Below, piece by piece: positions 508-63,192 of a stretch of DNA of 64,000 nt; within the stretch, counting starts at the first letter, position 1, and each line of letters starts with the position of its first letter. Under the pieces are notes generated by a model, which worked only from the letters and a program-made list of their open reading frames with translations, was not told the DNA's origin and made no database searches. Position numbers and translations under genes: made by a program. The stretch comes from a virus, in IMG/VR virus record IMGVR_UViG_3300031774_000005, positions 1-64,000 of that record. One strand, given 5' to 3'.

Positions 508-1876
508 TTTGTTTAAAGAAATGTCTAAAGAAGAACTCCAACAACTATGGAGCGAGACAATGGGAGATAAACCATTTCCTATGAACAGGTCGGAAAACTC
601 CCCTTTGGATTCTTTTTATCCGATTGATAATTTTATAGTTTTTATGAAAGAAGGCAAACCTATTTCCGGACTTGGTTATTCTACAAGAGATGGGTTTAGT
701 CTTAGGGGCGGAGCATTTACTATTCCCGAAGAAAGAAATTCGGGGGTTTATAAAAAAGTAGCAAGTGAAGCAGATAGAATAATCCCTACTCCTTCTATTG
801 CAGGTTTTTCTTCATCTAATATTGATTCGGAAGAATGGAATGAAAAGGCAAAAGGTAGGGGTTGGATGATTAAACCCACTGATGAAGAGTTAGGAGAGTA
901 TGCAGATAATCCAACAATTAAAGCATTCAAAGATTATTATGATAATCACCCAAAGGGGGCATCTTGGGGAGTCAAAGGATTATCTTTGAAAAAGTGGTTT
1001 AGTATTCTTAAGTCATATAGAATGGAAATGGGTTCAGCAGGGTTTAATGTTCTCGATGCTTCGGGTAAAGTTTTGAATTACAAAGGACTTAGCCGTTCAC
1101 AAGCAAAGACTTTTATTACAGAATTACAAGAAGGAAAAGATGTAAGCAGGTTCACTACAAAACCTCGTAAATCTATTAGGGGCAATTGGTTTAATCAATT
1201 GAAAAAAATTGACCCTAATAGTGGTGGTTATGTGAAGTTGCCAATGAGCGATATTGACGAACAACAGGTAGAAACTCCTTTTATGATTAACATAGTTGAT
1301 GGTGTTGCTATTCTTTTTAATGCTCATTATCATTATAGATATTCTCAAAGAAGAAATACCGGACTAACTATTATGGATAATACAATAGCAAGAAAATTTA
1401 TTGCTCTTGAGCCTGTTTTAGAAGGTTGGAGTTATATTGATGATGATTCTAAAAACCATTCTCATGTTATGTTTGATAGATTGAATAGCCCAACTGATGT
1501 TATTAAAAGAACTAATCCTAAAAAAACTATTGGCGACATAAGAAATCCCGAAACGGGAGAACCAATTACCGAAGCAGTTGTGTTTCATCATATTAATGAC
1601 GGCCATGATTCACCGGATAAAGAAAAGAAAAGAGATATATTTTATTTTAAGAATGAAGGTATTAAACCAAATCATAAGCAAAAGTTGGGTGTGTCTCAAA
1701 AGAAAAGAACAGATAAAGATAAGCCGAAAGAATTAGTTGTTAATCCTCGACAACCCAAAGAAGAAAAACCGAAAGAAGAAAAACCAAAGAAAGAATTAAC
1801 AGGAAAGCCACCCGAACAAAAACTTCCGCCTCCCCCTAAAAAGAAAAGAAGGCCAAATAGACAAAGAAGGTGGTAA
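494..1876 (+). CDS. Multidomain accessory protein: GNAT-like N-terminal domain, two internal WFxxLK motifs, K/P/R-rich tail
   Basis: GGAFTIPEERNSGVY resembles GNAT motif A; WFSILK at 995-1012 and WFNQLK at 1187-1204; PKEEK repeats. Confidence 0.6.
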   Translation: MRGLDLFKEMSKEELQQLWSETMGDKPFPMNRSENSPLDSFYPIDNFIVFMKEGKPISGLGYSTRDGFSLRGGAFTIPEERNSGVYKKVASEADRIIPTPSIAGFSSSNIDSEEWNEKAKGRGWMIKPTDEELGEYADNPTIKAFKDYYDNHPKGASWGVKGLSLKKWFSILKSYRMEMGSAGFNVLDASGKVLNYKGLSRSQAKTFITELQEGKDVSRFTTKPRKSIRGNWFNQLKKIDPNSGGYVKLPMSDIDEQQVETPFMINIVDGVAILFNAHYHYRYSQRRNTGLTIMDNTIARKFIALEPVLEGWSYIDDDSKNHSHVMFDRLNSPTDVIKRTNPKKTIGDIRNPETGEPITEAVVFHHINDGHDSPDKEKKRDIFYFKNEGIKPNHKQKLGVSQKKRTDKDKPKELVVNPRQPKEEKPKEEKPKKELTGKPPEQKLPPPPKKKRRPNRQRRW

Positions 1877-1878
1877 TT

Positions 1879-3312
1879 ATGGAAGAATTAGAAGCATTTA
1901 ATTTTGAACATGAAATGGATATGAAATTATCCAAAAACTCTTTTCCTTATTTTTTTCAAAATGTATTAGGTTTTGATTTTCCTCCATACATACAAGAATG
2001 GCATGAATTAATGAACTCTACTCAAAGAACTGTAATTATTTGTTCAAGAGACCACGGAAAATCTGTTTTTATGCATAGTTGGGTTGTTTGGAAATTAATC
2101 TTTGAAAAGCCACCATATCAAATGCTTTATATTTCTTCTAACCAAAAGCAGACTTTAGTTCACATGAGAGACATTGATAAGATGTTCACTCATCCTATGC
2201 TTAAAAAGTATAAACCCGCAAGAGGTTGGGCTATTGGTAATATTACTTTAACTAACGGTAATCAAATCTTAGAGCGTTCCGTTGGTTCACAGATTAGAGG
2301 ACTTCACCCTCAAGAGATTATTATTGACGACCCTTTGAAAGAGTTTAGTATGACAGGTATTCAAAAAGTCACAGATTGGTTTTATGGTGACATGATACCA
2401 ACACTTCACCACACCGCTTCTCTAAGAGTTATTGGAACTCCATTTAGTTATACAGATATATACCAACAGTTAGCAGAAAATCCTGCATATACTGTCAATA
2501 CTTATCCTTGTTTTAATGCGTTAAATGAACCCTTATGGCCGGAAAGATGGAACTATGATGCACTAATGGCTCGTAAAGCGGAAGTCGGTTCTTTGATGTT
2601 CACAAGAGAATATATGTGTGTTCCTATTTCAACGGGAACATCTTTGTTTAACCCCGAACATTTGGATAATGCCAAGAATAAAGACTTAATATTGAAGCCC
2701 TTAAAGAGAGAAGGCTACAAATACTTCGTCGGTGTAGACCCTGCTATTTCTACTGATGGAGATTACAATGTAATTACTGTAATAGAAATGGATGCAGAAG
2801 AAAATAAATCAATTATTTATATTGACCGAGCCAAGAATGTTCAATTTAGAGAAAACATACAGAAGGTCAAACTTATCGGTCAAATATTTAGACCCGAAGT
2901 TATTTTATTTGAAACAAACACATTCGCTAAGTCATTTACTCAAGAGTTGAGACAAGTGGCTGATTTAAATGTCCATGACTTTAATACAACAAGGAGAAAG
3001 AAGCAGGAGATTATTCTTAATCTACAAATGACTCTTGAAAATGGAAAACTAAATTTTCCTTATGGGAATGAAGAGAGCAGAAAAGTCTCTTCTATATTAA
3101 TTGAAGAACTGTCTATGTTTGCTATTACTGAAAGAGGCAAGTTTGAAGGAATAGGGGCGCACGACGATATGGTTATGAGTTTAGCATTAGCAAATGCCGC
3201 AACATACCAAGCCAACGATAACTTCATACTATTAGATGATTTAGGGCTATTTAATGAAACTCCTAATGATGGGAGAAAGCCTGTTAGAAATGCAATAGGA
3301 TTAAATTTTTGA
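1879..3312 (+). CDS. terL: Terminase large subunit
   Basis: SRDHGKS Walker A, IIIDD Walker B, GTP coupling motif, GVDPA and HDD nuclease motifs. Confidence 0.93.
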   Translation: MEELEAFNFEHEMDMKLSKNSFPYFFQNVLGFDFPPYIQEWHELMNSTQRTVIICSRDHGKSVFMHSWVVWKLIFEKPPYQMLYISSNQKQTLVHMRDIDKMFTHPMLKKYKPARGWAIGNITLTNGNQILERSVGSQIRGLHPQEIIIDDPLKEFSMTGIQKVTDWFYGDMIPTLHHTASLRVIGTPFSYTDIYQQLAENPAYTVNTYPCFNALNEPLWPERWNYDALMARKAEVGSLMFTREYMCVPISTGTSLFNPEHLDNAKNKDLILKPLKREGYKYFVGVDPAISTDGDYNVITVIEMDAEENKSIIYIDRAKNVQFRENIQKVKLIGQIFRPEVILFETNTFAKSFTQELRQVADLNVHDFNTTRRKKQEIILNLQMTLENGKLNFPYGNEESRKVSSILIEELSMFAITERGKFEGIGAHDDMVMSLALANAATYQANDNFILLDDLGLFNETPNDGRKPVRNAIGLNF

Positions 3313-17125: not shown

Positions 17126-17509
17126 ATGCCAGCGTTAAGCCAAGATACCCGTTTAGTTATGACTATACTTTTTGTTGGAGCATTAAGTGGAACAAATGTT
17201 TGGGCGTATGCTCAATTCGGAACAGGATTTCCTTATGGAGCATTAGCACATTCGGTTTTATTTGGATTAGGAACAATAGGTGCAATCATGGTTATGAAGG
17301 CCGTTTTTGATTTAGTCTTAAATGACAAGATAGAAATGTGGCTTCTTGATAGAAAGATAGCGGCCTTTTGGGAAAGAAAAGCAAGAGACGAGCAACAAAG
17401 AAACAAGATGCGTGAAAGCGCAAGACAATACAATACTAATCTTTATCAAGGTATTCAAGAAGAAGAAGAGAATACTGTTGGTAATGAGTTCTTAGCCGCA
17501 TTACAATAG
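17126..17509 (+). CDS. Membrane protein (two TM helices plus coiled-coil tail)
   Basis: LVMTILFVGALSG and ALAHSVLFGLGTIGAIMVM hydrophobic segments; charged helical C-terminus. Confidence 0.75.
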   Translation: MPALSQDTRLVMTILFVGALSGTNVWAYAQFGTGFPYGALAHSVLFGLGTIGAIMVMKAVFDLVLNDKIEMWLLDRKIAAFWERKARDEQQRNKMRESARQYNTNLYQGIQEEEENTVGNEFLAALQ

Positions 17510-17520
17510 GCGGTGAAAGA

Positions 17521-17739
17521 ATGGTCTTTGGAGATTTAATGGGGTTCTCGGACTCCGATTATGCTTATAATCAAACAAGAGCGCATTCTGCCGATATTTT
17601 CTTTTTGAAAATGAGAGCATGGTTTTGGGGTTCTTGTGTAGGGCTATCCGCTTTTCTAATTGGAAACATAATGGGCGTATTTGATATTAATGTAATGGGT
17701 TGGATTATAGAAAAAGTATCGGGTTTATGGGGTCATTGA
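17521..17739 (+). CDS. Small membrane protein
   Basis: AWFWGSCVGLSAFLIGNIMGVF TM segment; GCGGTGA RBS. Confidence 0.75.
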   Translation: MVFGDLMGFSDSDYAYNQTRAHSADIFFLKMRAWFWGSCVGLSAFLIGNIMGVFDINVMGWIIEKVSGLWGH

Positions 17740-17740
17740 T

Positions 17741-18409
17741 ATGTCATTAATGACAGGCTTTGCTATATTAGTTGGTGAAGCAGTTATTGGTTTTTGGAAG
17801 AAAGTCCACGCTATTAATTTTGGAGTGTATGGAGCAACAATGGTTGGTAAAACAACACTAAGTCACCAATTAAGAACAAGGGGAGAAGTTCCTCAAATTA
17901 ATGAAAGAACAGTAGGACTACATAGAGCATCGAGAAAAAATGTAAAAATTGATGGTGATTCACATACAATAAAAAGTGCTGACATAGGAGGGGAAGCGAT
18001 TTATTGGAAAGAATGGGTCAAAGATATGCAAAAGCGTAGAGTAAAATATATTATTTTTATGATAGACCATAGGCATTTAGATAATGAAGCAAATTTAGAC
18101 CATCAAGTAGCATGGAAGTTTTTAGTTGATACCATTGTGTCGGATTTATGGCCAACAAATAGGAAAAAAAGAGAATCGGATTATCCTATGGCTATCGGAA
18201 TATGGGCTAACAAATATGACATATGGGGAGAAAAATATCCATTAGAAGAAGGCCAAACCATAGACAAACATAAAATATTTGAACCTTTTAAGTATGGAAT
18301 GAGGCAGTTGAACGACAAGGGAATACCTTGTTTCAAATATATAGTATCGGCAAAATCAGACCCCGAAATGGTATATAGAGGCGTAATGACGATGATAAAG
18401 GATTATTGA
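17741..18409 (+). CDS. Arf/Ras-like small GTPase
   Basis: G1 GATMVGKT, G2 RTVG, G3 DIGG, G4 NKYD, G5 SAK; hydrophobic/amphipathic N-terminal helix. Confidence 0.9.
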   Translation: MSLMTGFAILVGEAVIGFWKKVHAINFGVYGATMVGKTTLSHQLRTRGEVPQINERTVGLHRASRKNVKIDGDSHTIKSADIGGEAIYWKEWVKDMQKRRVKYIIFMIDHRHLDNEANLDHQVAWKFLVDTIVSDLWPTNRKKRESDYPMAIGIWANKYDIWGEKYPLEEGQTIDKHKIFEPFKYGMRQLNDKGIPCFKYIVSAKSDPEMVYRGVMTMIKDY

Positions 18410-18414
18410 TTATT

Positions 18415-18975
18415 ATGTGGTTTAATATCTTAAAAAGACAAACTAAATTATACAATTATGACCCAGATTTTTTAAATCCTTATGGCGAAGTGTCTCACTT
18501 TCATGGAAGCAGGGCATCAAAAGAAAAATTATTAGAAGAAGGATTAAAACCTCAAGGAAAATATATTAGTCATCCTAAAGGATATACAAAAGAACATTAT
18601 AGAGATTTAGTTAAACCCGATAATAAAAATAAAAAATCATTGATATGGGCGGCAGGAAAAGAACAAGGACTTCCCTTAGAATACGGAGAATCTAAAGAAA
18701 ATGTCAAAGAAACAAAAGTTGATTATAATTCTTTATTTGATGAAAGGGGAATGCTATTACCAAATCCTAAAATTCTTGAATCTAACAAAACTATAAGGAC
18801 AGAAGGAAATATAGTAGGCATTAGAGGAAAGGATATTGATTGGAACAGAAGCGAGTCACCTATTTACAAAATAGGAACAAAATGGTATATCCATAATAAA
18901 CCAATTGACCCAGATAGATTAGTATTTCTAACAATAGAACAATGGAAAAAATATTTAAACAAGAAAGGCGATTAA
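18415..18975 (+). CDS. WFNILK-tagged ADP-ribosyltransferase-fold protein
   Basis: FHGS..LLEEGLKP, LIWAA, WYIHNKPIDPDRL resemble Tpt1/PARP-like ART motifs. Confidence 0.55.
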   Translation: MWFNILKRQTKLYNYDPDFLNPYGEVSHFHGSRASKEKLLEEGLKPQGKYISHPKGYTKEHYRDLVKPDNKNKKSLIWAAGKEQGLPLEYGESKENVKETKVDYNSLFDERGMLLPNPKILESNKTIRTEGNIVGIRGKDIDWNRSESPIYKIGTKWYIHNKPIDPDRLVFLTIEQWKKYLNKKGD

Positions 18976-18976
18976 A

Positions 18977-19639
18977 ATGTATAACAACCAATTAATAGGA
19001 CAAACCGCACCGCAACAATTTAACCCTGCACTAAATCCCTTACAACAAGCAAGGGCAAGTGGGGTTGTTCAAGAATATAAGTTTATAACTTTTAAACCAA
19101 AGAAGCAACAAAAGGAACTTATTAATGTTTTAAAAGCAGAACCTAAAAAATTTATAGGAATTAAATATGGTAAAAAATTTAATTTAAAAGATAGGTGCGT
19201 TGTTTGCGGGTATCATCATATTTGGGAACAAGGAGATTATATGCGACCACCTATTCCTTTAGATGGAGTAATTAAAGGAAGACCACTAAGAGGAACATAT
19301 TGCCCTAAACACGCATCACATTATATGCAGTTAGAAATGCTACAACAACAGATACTTGCAGATAAACACGGATTAGATTTTAAAGCGTTTAAACCTAAGA
19401 TGCCAAAGATACTAAAAAGTGGCCCAATCAAAAGTTTAACAAGAGAAGATGTTTTGTCATTAACTAACGCAGGTTGGTTTATAACCCCGCCCGCTTTAGC
19501 AGATAACAAGACGGCTACTGATGAAGTAATACGATTAATCACAGAAATAAATATAATGACAGACAGAATGAATCATTTGATGTTAAAATACGAAATTAAG
19601 GCAACTAACGAAGAACCAATAGAAAATAAGGAGGACTAA
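18977..19639 (+). CDS. Zn-finger protein with Q/P-rich N-terminus
   Basis: CVVC...YCPKH; C-terminal coiled coil. Confidence 0.7.
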   Translation: MYNNQLIGQTAPQQFNPALNPLQQARASGVVQEYKFITFKPKKQQKELINVLKAEPKKFIGIKYGKKFNLKDRCVVCGYHHIWEQGDYMRPPIPLDGVIKGRPLRGTYCPKHASHYMQLEMLQQQILADKHGLDFKAFKPKMPKILKSGPIKSLTREDVLSLTNAGWFITPPALADNKTATDEVIRLITEINIMTDRMNHLMLKYEIKATNEEPIENKED

Positions 19640-19641
19640 TT

Positions 19642-20295
19642 ATGGGAATATTAGGAACAAGTAATGGAACAGTGATGAACGCAGTTCAAGCAACAAGCGA
19701 CCAACAATTTAAGAATGTAAATAATTTACTTTCTTTACAAGATAATCATGTTGAGGAATTTTTTCAATATCATGGTGAACAATTTTTATCGGCTCTTGAA
19801 AAACTAATGGAAGATGTAGTTCAACGAGTTGTTTCTCAAATGCTTAGTAAATTAGCATTTACATCTAACGGTGCTTCTATAACAATTAATGCTGATGCTA
19901 TGAGAGAATTTGAAAAAATTACTCAAGAGAATATTGATTTGGATATTCAAAAGTTGCTAAATTCAGCAATTAATACAGAAGTAGTTAATCAAAGAAAATT
20001 AGCCAAACAACAATATTTAGAATCTCAAGGATTTAGTGGCGGTGGACAAATGCAACAACCAAGCGCAGGTATGGCAGTAGCGGGATTAACAGGTAATACT
20101 CAACAATATCAACAAATGCAAGGTGCTATGAATAATGGAACAGGCTATCCTATTCCTCCTAATGGAACAGACGGATATGGTAGGCCATATTGGATTGATG
20201 CTCAAGGACAAATGAGTTATGAACCCCCACAAAGCGGTTTAGGATTAGGTTCAGCAATACAAAAAGGTGCGGCTTGGGCTAAATGGCTAATGTGA
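19642..20295 (+). CDS. Q/G/P-rich protein with amphipathic C-terminus
   Basis: Helical N-half, low-complexity Q/G region, ends GSAIQKGAAWAKWLM. Confidence 0.7.
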   Translation: MGILGTSNGTVMNAVQATSDQQFKNVNNLLSLQDNHVEEFFQYHGEQFLSALEKLMEDVVQRVVSQMLSKLAFTSNGASITINADAMREFEKITQENIDLDIQKLLNSAINTEVVNQRKLAKQQYLESQGFSGGGQMQQPSAGMAVAGLTGNTQQYQQMQGAMNNGTGYPIPPNGTDGYGRPYWIDAQGQMSYEPPQSGLGLGSAIQKGAAWAKWLM

Positions 20296-41612: not shown

Positions 41613-41762
41613 TCACTTGTTTTTGTTATCTTCGCTCATCAAACGCTTCATATATTCTTCGACGCTTTCATCGGTGATATTAGTTCCACCGAAAGCGGCA
41701 AAGAAAAGAAGCATAAGAATTACGACGAAAACAAACAAGCCAAACCATTCCCAGCCAGTCAT
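41613..41762 (-). CDS. 49-aa single-TM protein (not in ORF track)
   Basis: MTGWEWFGLFVFVVILMLLFFAAFGG...; GGAGG RBS. Confidence 0.65.
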   Translation of the reverse strand: MTGWEWFGLFVFVVILMLLFFAAFGGTNITDESVEEYMKRLMSEDNKNK

Positions 41763-42355
41763 CACCAATCAACCTCCAATTCTTTATGTTCTCCCTTTTC
41801 CATAGAAAAGGCTTTTACTATTCCATTATCTTGTCCATATTTCCAAAGGTCATAGACTAATTGTGTATCTTTCATGCAATACTCAACAACTTCATCATAT
41901 TGACCCATTTTCCATAATTTAGGTGCATCTGCACTATCCATTAGTTTTGCATCATTCATGGTGCATTTAACTAAATTTTTAAGTTGGAATCTTTCTTTAT
42001 GTTCTTTCATTAAGATGCGACTTGTATCTATAAATTTTTCTTCTTTTAAATACTTATTAATGCAATAAATATCCATAGAATCTCTCAATATAGGTAAATC
42101 AAAAGCCTTAATGTTATGCCCTAACAAAACCCCGCCTTTTTGTAAATGCTCATCTAAGTCGTATTTTAGTTCGGATAACGATTTAATAATATGGCCGGAT
42201 TTAGCAAAACTATCCATTTTCTCATCAACATAAACTGTTCCGGTTTTACCATCCCAAGTAGCAACAGTAGATACTTGGAACATATGGGTATTACCAAAAC
42301 CGCCTATGTCAAAAGACATATTTTTAGTTTCTAAGTCAATAGCCAATACTGACAT
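41762..42355 (-). CDS. DEDD/RNase H-like 3'-5' exonuclease
   Basis: IDLET, GHNIKAFDLP, YCMKD. Confidence 0.85.
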   Translation of the reverse strand: MSVLAIDLETKNMSFDIGGFGNTHMFQVSTVATWDGKTGTVYVDEKMDSFAKSGHIIKSLSELKYDLDEHLQKGGVLLGHNIKAFDLPILRDSMDIYCINKYLKEEKFIDTSRILMKEHKERFQLKNLVKCTMNDAKLMDSADAPKLWKMGQYDEVVEYCMKDTQLVYDLWKYGQDNGIVKAFSMEKGEHKELEVDW

Positions 42356-48348: not shown

Positions 48349-48554
48349 TATTTCATACCCACCCTTGTTGGTGCATTTATCTTATTAATAACATAAAAGT
48401 CTCTATTTTCTCCAAGATATTCTTGCATTTCGCATACTGCTCGTTCTAACTTAGCAGTATTTATTTCAAATAATACATCTAAGTCTTTTTGTAAGCCCTT
48501 GATTGTCTTTTTTAATCCTTCTATTTCTTTTTGTAATTTATCTATATCATTCAT
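48348..48554 (-). CDS. Small coiled-coil protein
   Basis: 68-aa ORF coupled to polB-C. Confidence 0.6.
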   Translation of the reverse strand: MNDIDKLQKEIEGLKKTIKGLQKDLDVLFEINTAKLERAVCEMQEYLGENRDFYVINKINAPTRVGMK

Positions 48555-48682
48555 ACTATCACCGTCATAATTGTTATAATGGTCGCTATGTTCACGATAT
48601 TTACCATCATTAATATCTTATTTGATTTTGCTATCATAGCCAGCAATTCTTCTAATAATTCATTTGTTTTGTCCATCATCAT
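48551..48682 (-). CDS. 43-aa tail-anchored membrane microprotein (not in ORF track)
   Basis: MMMDKTNELLEELLAMIAKSNKILMMVNIVNIATIITIMTVIV. Confidence 0.55.
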   Translation of the reverse strand: MMMDKTNELLEELLAMIAKSNKILMMVNIVNIATIITIMTVIV

Positions 48683-48833
48683 TTTTATTCGCTCCTTGCT
48701 CAATATCAATAATGACCGCATTACGCTTTAAATTATTCATCATTTGAAATATCTCCTTTACTTCTTTTAAAGTAATATCCCATGTTTCTTCGGTATCATA
48801 CGATACCTTTACACTTACAATTTTAGTTCTCAT
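48660..48833 (-). CDS. Hypothetical protein
   Basis: GGAGG RBS before MRTKIV. Confidence 0.6.
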   Translation of the reverse strand: MRTKIVSVKVSYDTEETWDITLKEVKEIFQMMNNLKRNAVIIDIEQGANKNDDGQNK

Positions 48834-61523: not shown

Positions 61524-63038
61524 TTAAGCCTCCGGCAATAATACTGCTACATCTGTTGAGTAGAATAAAGATGCTATTGATAATGCCGCCAAGAAACTAT
61601 TCTTAACTACCTTATATGGGTCAAAGACTCCTGCTTCTTCTAAGTTTTCTATCTTATTAGTAAGAGCATTGTAGCCCATACCGGAAGAAACATCAATTTC
61701 TAATTTTGATGAAACATCACCGCTATTTTCAATCAATGTTAGCATTGGTTGTTTTAAAGAATATGTGAACCACTTCGGTAAAGTATCGTCTTTTGCTAAT
61801 TTAGCATATAATGTTCCTCCACCAACTACAATTCCTTCTTCTAATGCGGCCTTTGTTGCATGTAAAGCATCATCAAGTCTTTCTTTAGTTTCTCGCATTT
61901 CAATAGATGAAGAAGCACCAATTCTAATTGTGGCAACTCCCCCGCTAAGTTTTGCTATTCTGTTTTTGATTCTTGCTACTTGATGTCCTTTAGTATCTTT
62001 AGCCTGTTTCTTAAGCGTTTCAATTCTACTTAGAATCTCATATTCTTTTTCTTCATTTGTTCCAATAAAGGTAGTTGATTCTTTGGTAATAGATACTTTC
62101 TTACAAGTTCCTAAATCTAAAAGAGTGAAAACTTTAGGGTCGTCTTTGCTTTCTTCAACAAAAACTCTTCCACCTAATGCACAAGCCATATCTCCTAATT
62201 CATTTATTTGTTCATCACCAAAATTAGGTGAAAGGACAACTGCACATTGAATAGTCTTTTGTAAAAGATTCATAACTAAATTATTCATGGCTGAACCATC
62301 AAACCCTTTACAGAAAATAACAAGAGGCCGGTTGTTTGCTGAACTAAATTCTAATAGTGGCATAATATCGCTAAACTTTCTAATAGAAACATTAGACATA
62401 AACACCAATGGATTATCAAACTCAACACGGCCATTTTCAGTATTGCACATCAAATGACTTAGATAGCCTTCATTGATTTCCATACCTTTTCTAATCTCAA
62501 TTTCTGTATTATAATTATTAGATTCTTCAACGGTGATAATACCGTCTCTTCCTACTTCATCAATTGCTCCTTTAATTAGACTACCAAGATGCCTGTCATT
62601 GTTTGCCGCTATTGTAGCAACATTAAGAACATCGTCGTTTTCTACTTCAACAACATAAGTATCTAAATAATTAATCATCGTATCTCTTAAATCGCTAATT
62701 AAGTTATTAAAATCATGAATTGACATATCTTCTCCAAAATCAACTAAATTATTACAAAAAGCCTGTGCTAAAATACAAGCGGTAGTTGTTCCATCGCCCG
62801 AATTATCTTGTGCTTTACTTGCTAAGTTTTGAACTAATTGTATTCCCATTTGAACATACGGGTCTTCATGAGAAATATACTTTGTAATGGTAACTCCGTC
62901 ATTAATAATAATGGGTGGATTACCTTGCAGTATAACTGTTTTGGCTTGTGGGCCAAGTGTAGGTTTTACTGTATTAGCAACTAAATTAATTCCTTCTAAC
63001 AATTTCTTTTTAACTTCTATTCTATCATTCAGTATCAT
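61524..63038 (-). CDS. groEL: Group I chaperonin (GroEL-like)
   Basis: TLGP, NDGVTI, GDGTTT, RIAKLSGGVA, DDALHATKAALEEGIVVGGG, GVFDP. Confidence 0.93.
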   Translation of the reverse strand: MILNDRIEVKKKLLEGINLVANTVKPTLGPQAKTVILQGNPPIIINDGVTITKYISHEDPYVQMGIQLVQNLASKAQDNSGDGTTTACILAQAFCNNLVDFGEDMSIHDFNNLISDLRDTMINYLDTYVVEVENDDVLNVATIAANNDRHLGSLIKGAIDEVGRDGIITVEESNNYNTEIEIRKGMEINEGYLSHLMCNTENGRVEFDNPLVFMSNVSIRKFSDIMPLLEFSSANNRPLVIFCKGFDGSAMNNLVMNLLQKTIQCAVVLSPNFGDEQINELGDMACALGGRVFVEESKDDPKVFTLLDLGTCKKVSITKESTTFIGTNEEKEYEILSRIETLKKQAKDTKGHQVARIKNRIAKLSGGVATIRIGASSSIEMRETKERLDDALHATKAALEEGIVVGGGTLYAKLAKDDTLPKWFTYSLKQPMLTLIENSGDVSSKLEIDVSSGMGYNALTNKIENLEEAGVFDPYKVVKNSFLAALSIASLFYSTDVAVLLPEA

Positions 63039-63192
63039 TCTTTCCTCTCCTATATTGTGTTTCTTTAATTCCTTCTTGTAGTAAATAAACAAGAATCTCA
63101 TTTGTTGTCATATTTAGGTCGTCTCTCATCTTCATTATGAAACTCCATTGTTGTTCCGTAAATGGTAATGAATTAATATTTATTTCCTTCAT
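63025..63192 (-). CDS. 55-aa ribbon-helix-helix-like protein (not in ORF track)
   Basis: MKEININSLPFTEQQWSFIMKMRDDLNMTTNEILVYLLQEG; overlaps groES stop and groEL start. Confidence 0.5.
   Translation of the reverse strand: MKEININSLPFTEQQWSFIMKMRDDLNMTTNEILVYLLQEGIKETQYRRGKNDTE

Follow-up and report, generated by a model that had tools for sequence, protein, structure and literature searches.

Why should a tailed virus of archaea carry a small GTPase among genes for membrane proteins, between its capsid and its tail genes? The question is raised by positions 17126-20295 of the IMG/VR virus record IMGVR_UViG_3300031774_000005, a linear viral contig of 75 kb from a magrovirus, of which the first 64,000 nucleotides were analyzed as one stretch (hereafter the window). 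The locus encodes a very divergent, Arf/ArvA-like GTPase, preceded by two small membrane proteins and followed by two conserved proteins, here called X and Q. These five genes probably form a self-contained magrovirus gene cassette that acts as an autonomous, membrane-associated GTP-switch module. By analogy with cellular GTPases of this type, the cassette may take part in egress or membrane remodeling, a role that is advanced here tentatively.

The plus-strand module of the record holds the genes for terminase, portal, prohead protease, major capsid protein (MCP), tail tube and tape measure. Six plus-strand open reading frames (ORFs), spaced by 1-13 nt or overlapping, fill 17126-20295 between the MCP block and the tail genes. 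The five that the original prediction had grouped are all found in the ORF listing where it placed them, tightly packed and on the plus strand. They are p17126 (17126-17509, 127 aa, the TM1 position), a small membrane protein with a hydrophobic hairpin and a charged helical C-terminal tail; p17521 (17521-17739, 72 aa, the TM2 position), a single-pass membrane protein with its transmembrane (TM) segment at residues 35-63 and its stop 1 nt upstream of the GTPase start; the GTPase (17741-18409, 222 aa); p18977, or X (18977-19639, 220 aa); and p19642, or Q (19642-20295, 217 aa). A sixth ORF within the span, 18406-18975, had been missed. The cluster had also been placed between capsid and neck genes; the MCP does lie upstream, and tail tube and tape measure lie downstream, but neck genes were not identified immediately downstream.

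The claim of a viral small GTPase with Arf-like architecture is supported. All five G motifs (G1-G5) are intact in the window GTPase and invariant in 18 homologues; among 147 unique sequences from the four virus lineages described below, G1, G4 and G5 are kept in every one and G3 in 143. More than 400 homologues share at least 70% identity, one of them annotated as a hypothetical protein from Poseidoniales virus YSH_150918. The AlphaFold2 (AF2) model, with a predicted local distance difference test (pLDDT) score of 72, has the alpha/beta fold of Ras-superfamily (TRAFAC) small GTPases and an extra N-terminal helix at residues 3-22. Foldseek gave mixed top matches to this model (Rab33, K-Ras and G-alpha). 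In a fold search of 48,161 representative chains, in which rows less than 1 Z apart count as ties, the leading scores belonged to an Asgard RagA-like protein (Z 14.7), Arf6 (14.7/14.5), SRbeta (14.3), Arl2 (14.3), the mimivirus Rab (13.9) and Sar1 (13.6). Rab and Ras chains stood about 1 Z unit below the top-ranked Arf, Arl, SRbeta, Sar1 and Rag chains. Because Z gaps below 1 are ties, the fold leans to the Arf/Sar/SRbeta/Rag side without deciding the matter.

Sequence comparison places the protein in the same neighborhood. The window GTPase alone yielded sub-threshold Pfam and NCBIfam matches only (MMR_HSR1, Roc, SRPRB, Ras and small_GTP), the SRbeta family (PF09439, SRPRB) at E 0.035; Pfam Arf (PF00025) gave no match at E up to 1. 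A close relative, P0121, scored 16.8 bits against Pfam Arf, for which the cut-off is 22.3, and that cut-off was passed only by the distant members P0170 and P0165. These two were considered as a bridge to a cellular family and set aside, as both are singletons on contigs of about 1.6 kb, neither occurs in the viral contig collection, and P0170 is without relatives. A phmmer search of the PDB sequences with the single GTPase sequence returned nothing; the family profile alone matched. Built from 11 divergent members, it found 8oun_A as its best hit (E 8e-9), in an alignment that begins where the N-terminal helix ends, takes in G1, switch I, G3 and the switch-II Trp, and reaches into strand 4. 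The 8OUN entry is full-length Asgard GerdArfR1-GDP (10.1101/2024.02.28.582541). The nearest named Atlas clusters likewise carry Arf.

Two features set the viral GTPase apart from the Arf pattern. An N-terminal helix is predicted in the GTPases of all lineages and is strongly hydrophobic in the window's own (about residues 2-20). Its mean hydrophobicity (H) is 0.69 and its hydrophobic moment (muH) 0.18 in lineage A, as against 0.28 and 0.31 in lineage B. Since the lineage A helix combines hydrophobicity with a low moment and is trailed by Lys-Lys, it resembles an anchor; the Arf-like helix of the original prediction is therefore present as a hydrophobic helix, though not as a clearly amphipathic one. 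The second feature is switch II, which reads A-D-I-G-G-E in the window versus W-D-x-G-G-Q in Arf, with Glu85 (codon around 17993-17995) at the position of the catalytic Gln. The residue after D-x-G-G is Glu in 24 of 24 unique lineage A sequences. In lineage B (L081-L160) it is Gln in 26, Glu in 7, Asp in 2 and His in 1, and in lineage C (L161, L164) it is His, the residue that Sar1 has at this position. Searches with profiles and structures thus bear out the Arf-like affinity in part: Arf, Arl, SRbeta, Sar1 and Rag chains rank at the top, but strict Arf-family membership is not established, because the Pfam Arf threshold is missed, Glu replaces Gln, and Rab and Ras follow within about 1 Z.

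Beyond the window, the cassette is found as an ordered unit in four magrovirus-like lineages that are deeply diverged from one another. The window's own lineage (lineage A) was compared through 80 close loci from viral contigs, and lineages B, C and D were found by an exhaustive representative search. In 79 of the 80 close loci, p16838, p17126 and p17521 lie directly upstream of the GTPase, p17126 at 65-100% identity and p17521 at a mean of 78%. X is present in 76 and Q in 73 of them, and many loci end short of these two genes. The outermost gene, p16838, was dropped as a cassette member because it is conserved in lineage A only. Lineage B comprises 80 loci, whose GTPase shows about 30-34% identity in tblastn searches; lineage C comprises 4 loci and lineage D 11 metagenome loci. 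Across the three, GTPase identity is 30-40%. Each keeps the order hairpin membrane protein, single-pass membrane protein, GTPase, X and Gln/Gly-rich protein. Lineages B and D have an additional small two-TM protein directly after Q (L085:10201-10458, L181:12229-12552, L190:12221-12532), matched between the two lineages by HHalign at 90%, which makes theirs a six-gene unit; lineage A has no equivalent. The order is kept in the close loci and in three further lineages, with positional equivalents of the upstream pair in each; the original prediction, which a GTPase not co-conserved with the membrane genes would have refuted, is not refuted on this count.

Homology across lineages was gauged by HHalign probability, for which cross-class controls gave 0.1-10%. 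X of the window matches X of lineages B, C and D at 93-96.5%, and these three match one another at 100%. Q matches its lineage C counterpart at 76%, with which it has the motif I-T-Q-E-N-I-D in common, and its lineage B counterpart at 60%; lineage B matches lineage D at 96%, and Q is on these values linked transitively across lineages. TM1 is homologous between B and C and between B and D (98%), and homology of TM2 was found for B and D only (93%).

The surroundings of the cassette vary. MCP and small head genes flank it in lineage A; in lineage B a protein of about 2,300 aa lies upstream and a homologue of the window TerL (ORF 1870-3312) about 7 kb downstream; a thermosome gene stands just upstream in lineage C (L161:5250-6782, Pfam Cpn60_TCP1 5.5e-133); and glycosyltransferase-like genes flank it in lineage D. 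Because the flanking genes differ from lineage to lineage, the cassette moves as a block. Elsewhere in the window, an ORF of 525 aa at 61524-63101 on the minus strand resembles a group II chaperonin (thermosome) by its N-terminal sequence only.

The cassette is under strong purifying conservation. In the 67 lineage A loci where the six compared genes are all present, identity to the window averages 89% for the GTPase, 83% for Q, 82.5% for TM1, 79% for the MCP, 78% for TM2 and 76% for X. Outside the cassette it is 52-60% for the flanking small head genes and 38% for p20309. Searches by tblastn with the GTPase, X, Q and the lineage B GTPase found no match in 50,697 GenBank phage records, a set from which records close to the window may be missing. 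Three sequencing runs labeled as RNA contain short contigs only, among them, from an oligo-dT library, 151-nt pieces that match 17356-17485 and 19320-19470 exactly; because DNA carry-over is possible, no claim of transcription is drawn from them.

The two upstream proteins have the hydrophobic character expected of membrane proteins. In p17126, which had been described as a two-TM protein, residues 38-66 are strongly hydrophobic (Kyte-Doolittle, KD, 1.73), but residues 10-28 are merely borderline (KD 1.48). Position and topology are those of TM1 in lineages B, C and D, to which HHalign gives 1-12%, and p17521 likewise has a positional analogue in each; p17126 belongs to no Pfam or PHROG family. 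Throughout the 42-gene late module, strongly hydrophobic segments occur only in three consecutive cassette proteins and in the tape measure. Two tiny putative ORFs on the minus strand, that of the replication module (41613-41768, 51 aa, and 48551-48721, 56 aa), have one strongly hydrophobic segment each and are the window's only other small membrane-protein candidates.

Small membrane proteins of this kind invite comparison with holin/antiholin cassettes, which they resemble in pairing a hairpin protein with a charged C-terminal tail and a single-pass protein, presumably late. The holin-like traits of p17126 and p17521 (small size, TM segments and a charged tail) are generic and do not define a family. 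Compared with described holin families, Pfam and PHROGs give the two proteins insignificant matches only, to families of unknown function. None of the proteins scanned was noted as an endolysin, although no systematic search of the window for holins or endolysins was made. The magrovirus cassette differs from holin/antiholin cassettes in being unusually highly conserved, and we know of no lysis cassette that contains a GTPase.

Downstream of the GTPase, its conserved partner X begins with a stretch rich in Gln, Pro and Asn and further contains a basic helix and a conserved core of Cys and His residues. Residues C74 and G78 are conserved across lineages, the stretch T107-Y-C-P110 is invariant and H112 is nearly so. 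The protein had been described as a Q/P-rich zinc finger; its CxxC is not conserved between lineages, and zinc binding is for that reason unproven. X has no family in Pfam, PHROG, NCBIfam or Atlas, where scores of at most 0.79 are at noise level, and an AF2 model from a 13-sequence cross-lineage alignment (pLDDT 45) was unusable. Q consists of a helical N-terminal domain, a Gln/Gly/Pro-rich linker (residues 130-200: Q 15%, G 21%, P 10%) and, at its C-terminus, a short helix rich in Gly, Ala and Trp. Its PHROG matches are faint and non-significant, one of them to a 'virion structural protein' family (E 0.019).

Among known systems, the archaeal ArvA-ArvB-ArvC system (OapABC) is, to judge from its architecture, the closest functional analogue of the viral cassette. 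ArvA, an archaeal Arf-like GTPase with an N-terminal helix, drives the budding of vesicles in concert with the products of two downstream genes of its operon, ArvB (DUF2073) and the Zn-ribbon protein ArvC (DUF2072) (PMC10927574). The system is present in Haloferax volcanii and in many Euryarchaeota and DPANN; deletion of arvA lowers extracellular vesicles about 3-fold, and overexpression of ArvA alone raises them 3.5-fold (PMC10927574). In both systems the Arf-like GTPase measures about 215-225 aa and has an N-terminal helix, and two conserved partner genes, one of them Cys-rich, come after it. ArvABC acts on the cytoplasmic membrane, and the viral cassette may well do the same. The viral GTPase family matches ArvA by HHalign at 96% (E 3.5e-9) over 65 columns, from the N-terminus to G3. 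The likeness stops at G3, which is D-T-P-G-I in ArvA, and the viral cassette has two extra upstream membrane proteins relative to the operon as described (PMC10927574).

A relationship to the host phylum was sought by running the viral profile against 351 Thermoplasmatota genomes. One weak match each (two in one genome) was found in 84 genomes, at E 8e-6 to 9e-4 and confined to the P-loop region. The 12 loci inspected all prove to be ArvA operons, with an ArvB-like gene downstream in 12 of 12 and an ArvC-like Zn-ribbon gene in 11 of 12, and ArvA is the only GTPase that the profile reached in this sample. Judged from these loci (L169-L180; G279, G282, G231, G181 and others), ArvABC-type operons occur in at least 84 of the 351 genomes; a term search of the main text of the ArvA paper found no mention of Thermoplasmatota (PMC10927574).

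The partner genes themselves have no counterpart in this comparison. By HHalign, ArvB reaches at most 0.1% against X, Q, TM1 and TM2, and the values for ArvC are 0.1-0.6%; neither p18977 nor p19642 has a Pfam match. The ArvB family (PF09846) found nothing in the virus record, and the Haloferax and Methanosarcina controls were positive. The cassette therefore has the architecture of an ArvABC-type or Arf-type membrane switch and is neither a copy of ArvABC nor a curated Arf-family member.

Other small GTPases are instructive for their differences. The defining mechanism of the Arf family is nucleotide-dependent release of the helix via the interswitch toggle (10.1101/2024.02.28.582541). Compared with Arf1, Arf6, Arl1, Arl2, Arl8, Sar1 and the Asgard ArfR proteins (GerdArfR1, 8OUN/8OUM; HodArfR1, 8OUK), the window GTPase lacks the Trp before G3, has Glu for the catalytic Gln and bears a helix that is hydrophobic rather than amphipathic. 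It differs from SRbeta in its viral context, and an SRalpha-like partner was not noted. A virus-encoded small GTPase has a precedent in the mimivirus Rab GTPase (PDB 5XC5). That protein, however, is a recognizable Rab by its entry title and comes from a eukaryotic giant virus, whereas the present GTPase belongs to an archaeal tailed virus, falls below every curated family threshold and is part of a dedicated cassette with membrane proteins.

How might such a cassette act? The original prediction had named timing of lysis, remodeling of the host membrane and anchoring of assembly as candidate roles. In the favored reading, the hydrophobic N-terminal helix would hold the GTPase to the cytoplasmic side of the host membrane, beside the two small integral membrane proteins encoded upstream. 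The GTPase would cycle between GTP and GDP, and in one of these states engage X, with its Cys/His core, and Q, with its Gln/Gly-rich sequence and short hydrophobic C-terminal helix. The cassette would then reshape or breach the host cytoplasmic membrane for virus release, much as Arf, Sar1 and ArvA couple a GTP switch to membrane deformation. Because the cassette is co-oriented and tightly packed with late structural genes, we infer that it is expressed late and acts on the host cytoplasmic membrane; its location there, the interaction of the five proteins and the role in egress belong to the same inference. That the cassette is a GTP-switched device by which the archaeal cytoplasmic membrane is deformed or ruptured and progeny set free is a possibility, and in this specific form a rather doubtful one.

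Several observations count against that reading. The window GTPase reaches no Pfam GTPase-family threshold, and its N-terminal helix is not clearly amphipathic (muH 0.18-0.31). As the catalytic residue is Glu, mostly Gln or His depending on the lineage, the mechanism of hydrolysis may differ. The 65 columns of similarity to ArvA could be common to any two TRAFAC GTPases, and neither ArvB nor ArvC is related to X or Q (HHalign probability below 1%). Membrane binding and complex formation are hypothetical, and TM1 and TM2 of the window match those of other lineages by position and topology only (HHalign at most 15%). The lineage A cassette lies inside the head-to-tail gene block, a setting that fits a morphogenetic role too. 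Phage lysis genes, moreover, are usually poorly conserved, and the cassette is, by its GTPase, better conserved than the capsid gene (89% versus 79%). Such unusually high conservation, atypical of lysis genes, tempers the egress reading; it fits a multi-partner machine.

The same conservation, at or above that of the capsid gene, would suit a module of morphogenesis or of the virion, whose products are assembly factors or virion components, such as ejection or channel-forming proteins that have membrane-inserting segments, with the GTPase as an assembly chaperone or checkpoint. The position of the lineage A genes between MCP and tail tube, in one tightly packed co-oriented block, and the faint match of p19642 to the 'virion structural protein' family (E 0.019) point the same way. 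That match is not significant, however, and head and neck gene order is normally fixed, whereas the neighbors of the cassette change by lineage from a giant protein to a thermosome and glycosyltransferase-like genes. Searches of the GenBank phage collection found no homologue, and we know of no small GTPase in the particles or assembly pathways of tailed viruses. A virion module is an unlikely explanation. Manipulation of the host, short of egress, deserves similarly low credence. As a counterpart of the ArvA switch, the cassette might redirect or block the formation of host vesicles, shed receptors and so exclude superinfection, or build a membrane-bound assembly site. That ArvA is the nearest relative in the host phylum and by itself raises vesicle output when overexpressed speaks for this idea, as does the behavior of the cassette as an autonomous module. 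Against it, only the N-terminal third resembles ArvA, the ArvB and ArvC partners are missing from the virus record and bear no relation to X and Q, and the survey of ArvA is at the level of the phylum Thermoplasmatota rather than of the Poseidoniales hosts.

A further alternative draws on the insert within the cassette. The accessory ORF 18406-18975 (plus strand, 189 aa, probable start at ATG 18415) stands outside the core cassette; it is absent from 80 of 80 related loci and has no family match in Pfam, PHROG or NCBIfam. It begins with M-W-F-N-I-L-K, an instance of the N-terminal heptapeptide M-W-x-x-[IV]-[LI]-K. Insertions recur at the TM2-GTPase junction (13 of 79 loci) and at the GTPase-X junction (13 of 76), and nearly all of the longer junction ORFs are different proteins with this heptapeptide in common (L002:5445-5996, L011:3300-3590, L027:6666-6965, L030:6675-7133, L035:4685-5149, L057:5056-5999, L068:6666-7133 and equivalents in L073-L079); the untagged exceptions are three short ORFs that overlap tagged ones. 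An SRbeta-like targeting system is conceivable, in which the anchored GTPase, with its TM partners, would serve as receptor or insertase for the tagged viral proteins whose genes lie within the cassette. This is purely speculative and highly improbable: the strict motif occurs once in the window, in ORF 18406-18975 (none in the reversed-sequence control), and none of the genes examined was noted as encoding an SRalpha, SRX or SRP component. A signal for capsid targeting or for the prohead protease, or else a scar of recombination, would explain the tag as well as, or better than, a targeting function. By eye, several lineage B genes just upstream of the cassette (L155:2628-6901, L128:3748-7105) have a looser aromatic-x-x-[IL]-L-K near their N-termini.

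The preferred reading, a membrane GTP switch with a possible part in egress, bears on viruses of wide ecological reach. Magroviruses are reported to be widespread and abundant viruses of one of the most abundant groups of microbes in the surface ocean (PMC5434244). Their hosts are marine group II archaea, and magroviruses have never been cultured. No GTPase is mentioned in the magrovirus and archaeal-tailed-virus literature searched, the searchable literature contains no description of the cassette, and the magrovirus literature searched names no lysis or egress genes for Magrovirales; one paper proposes holins, for a separate order only (PMC11706807). The cassette pairs a GTPase of the type that buds membranes in eukaryotes and in archaea with the only small membrane proteins of the late module, and so offers a concrete, clonable candidate for the way in which magroviruses affect their host's membrane. 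Small-GTPase membrane switches would thereby be extended to tailed viruses of prokaryotes, and the cassette bears on the spread of Arf/ArvA-type GTPases beyond eukaryotes and Asgard archaea. Should it prove to be an egress machine, it would be the first one identified in tailed archaeal viruses; among viruses at large, it would be the first means of release to be built around an Arf/ArvA-like small GTPase of the virus's own.

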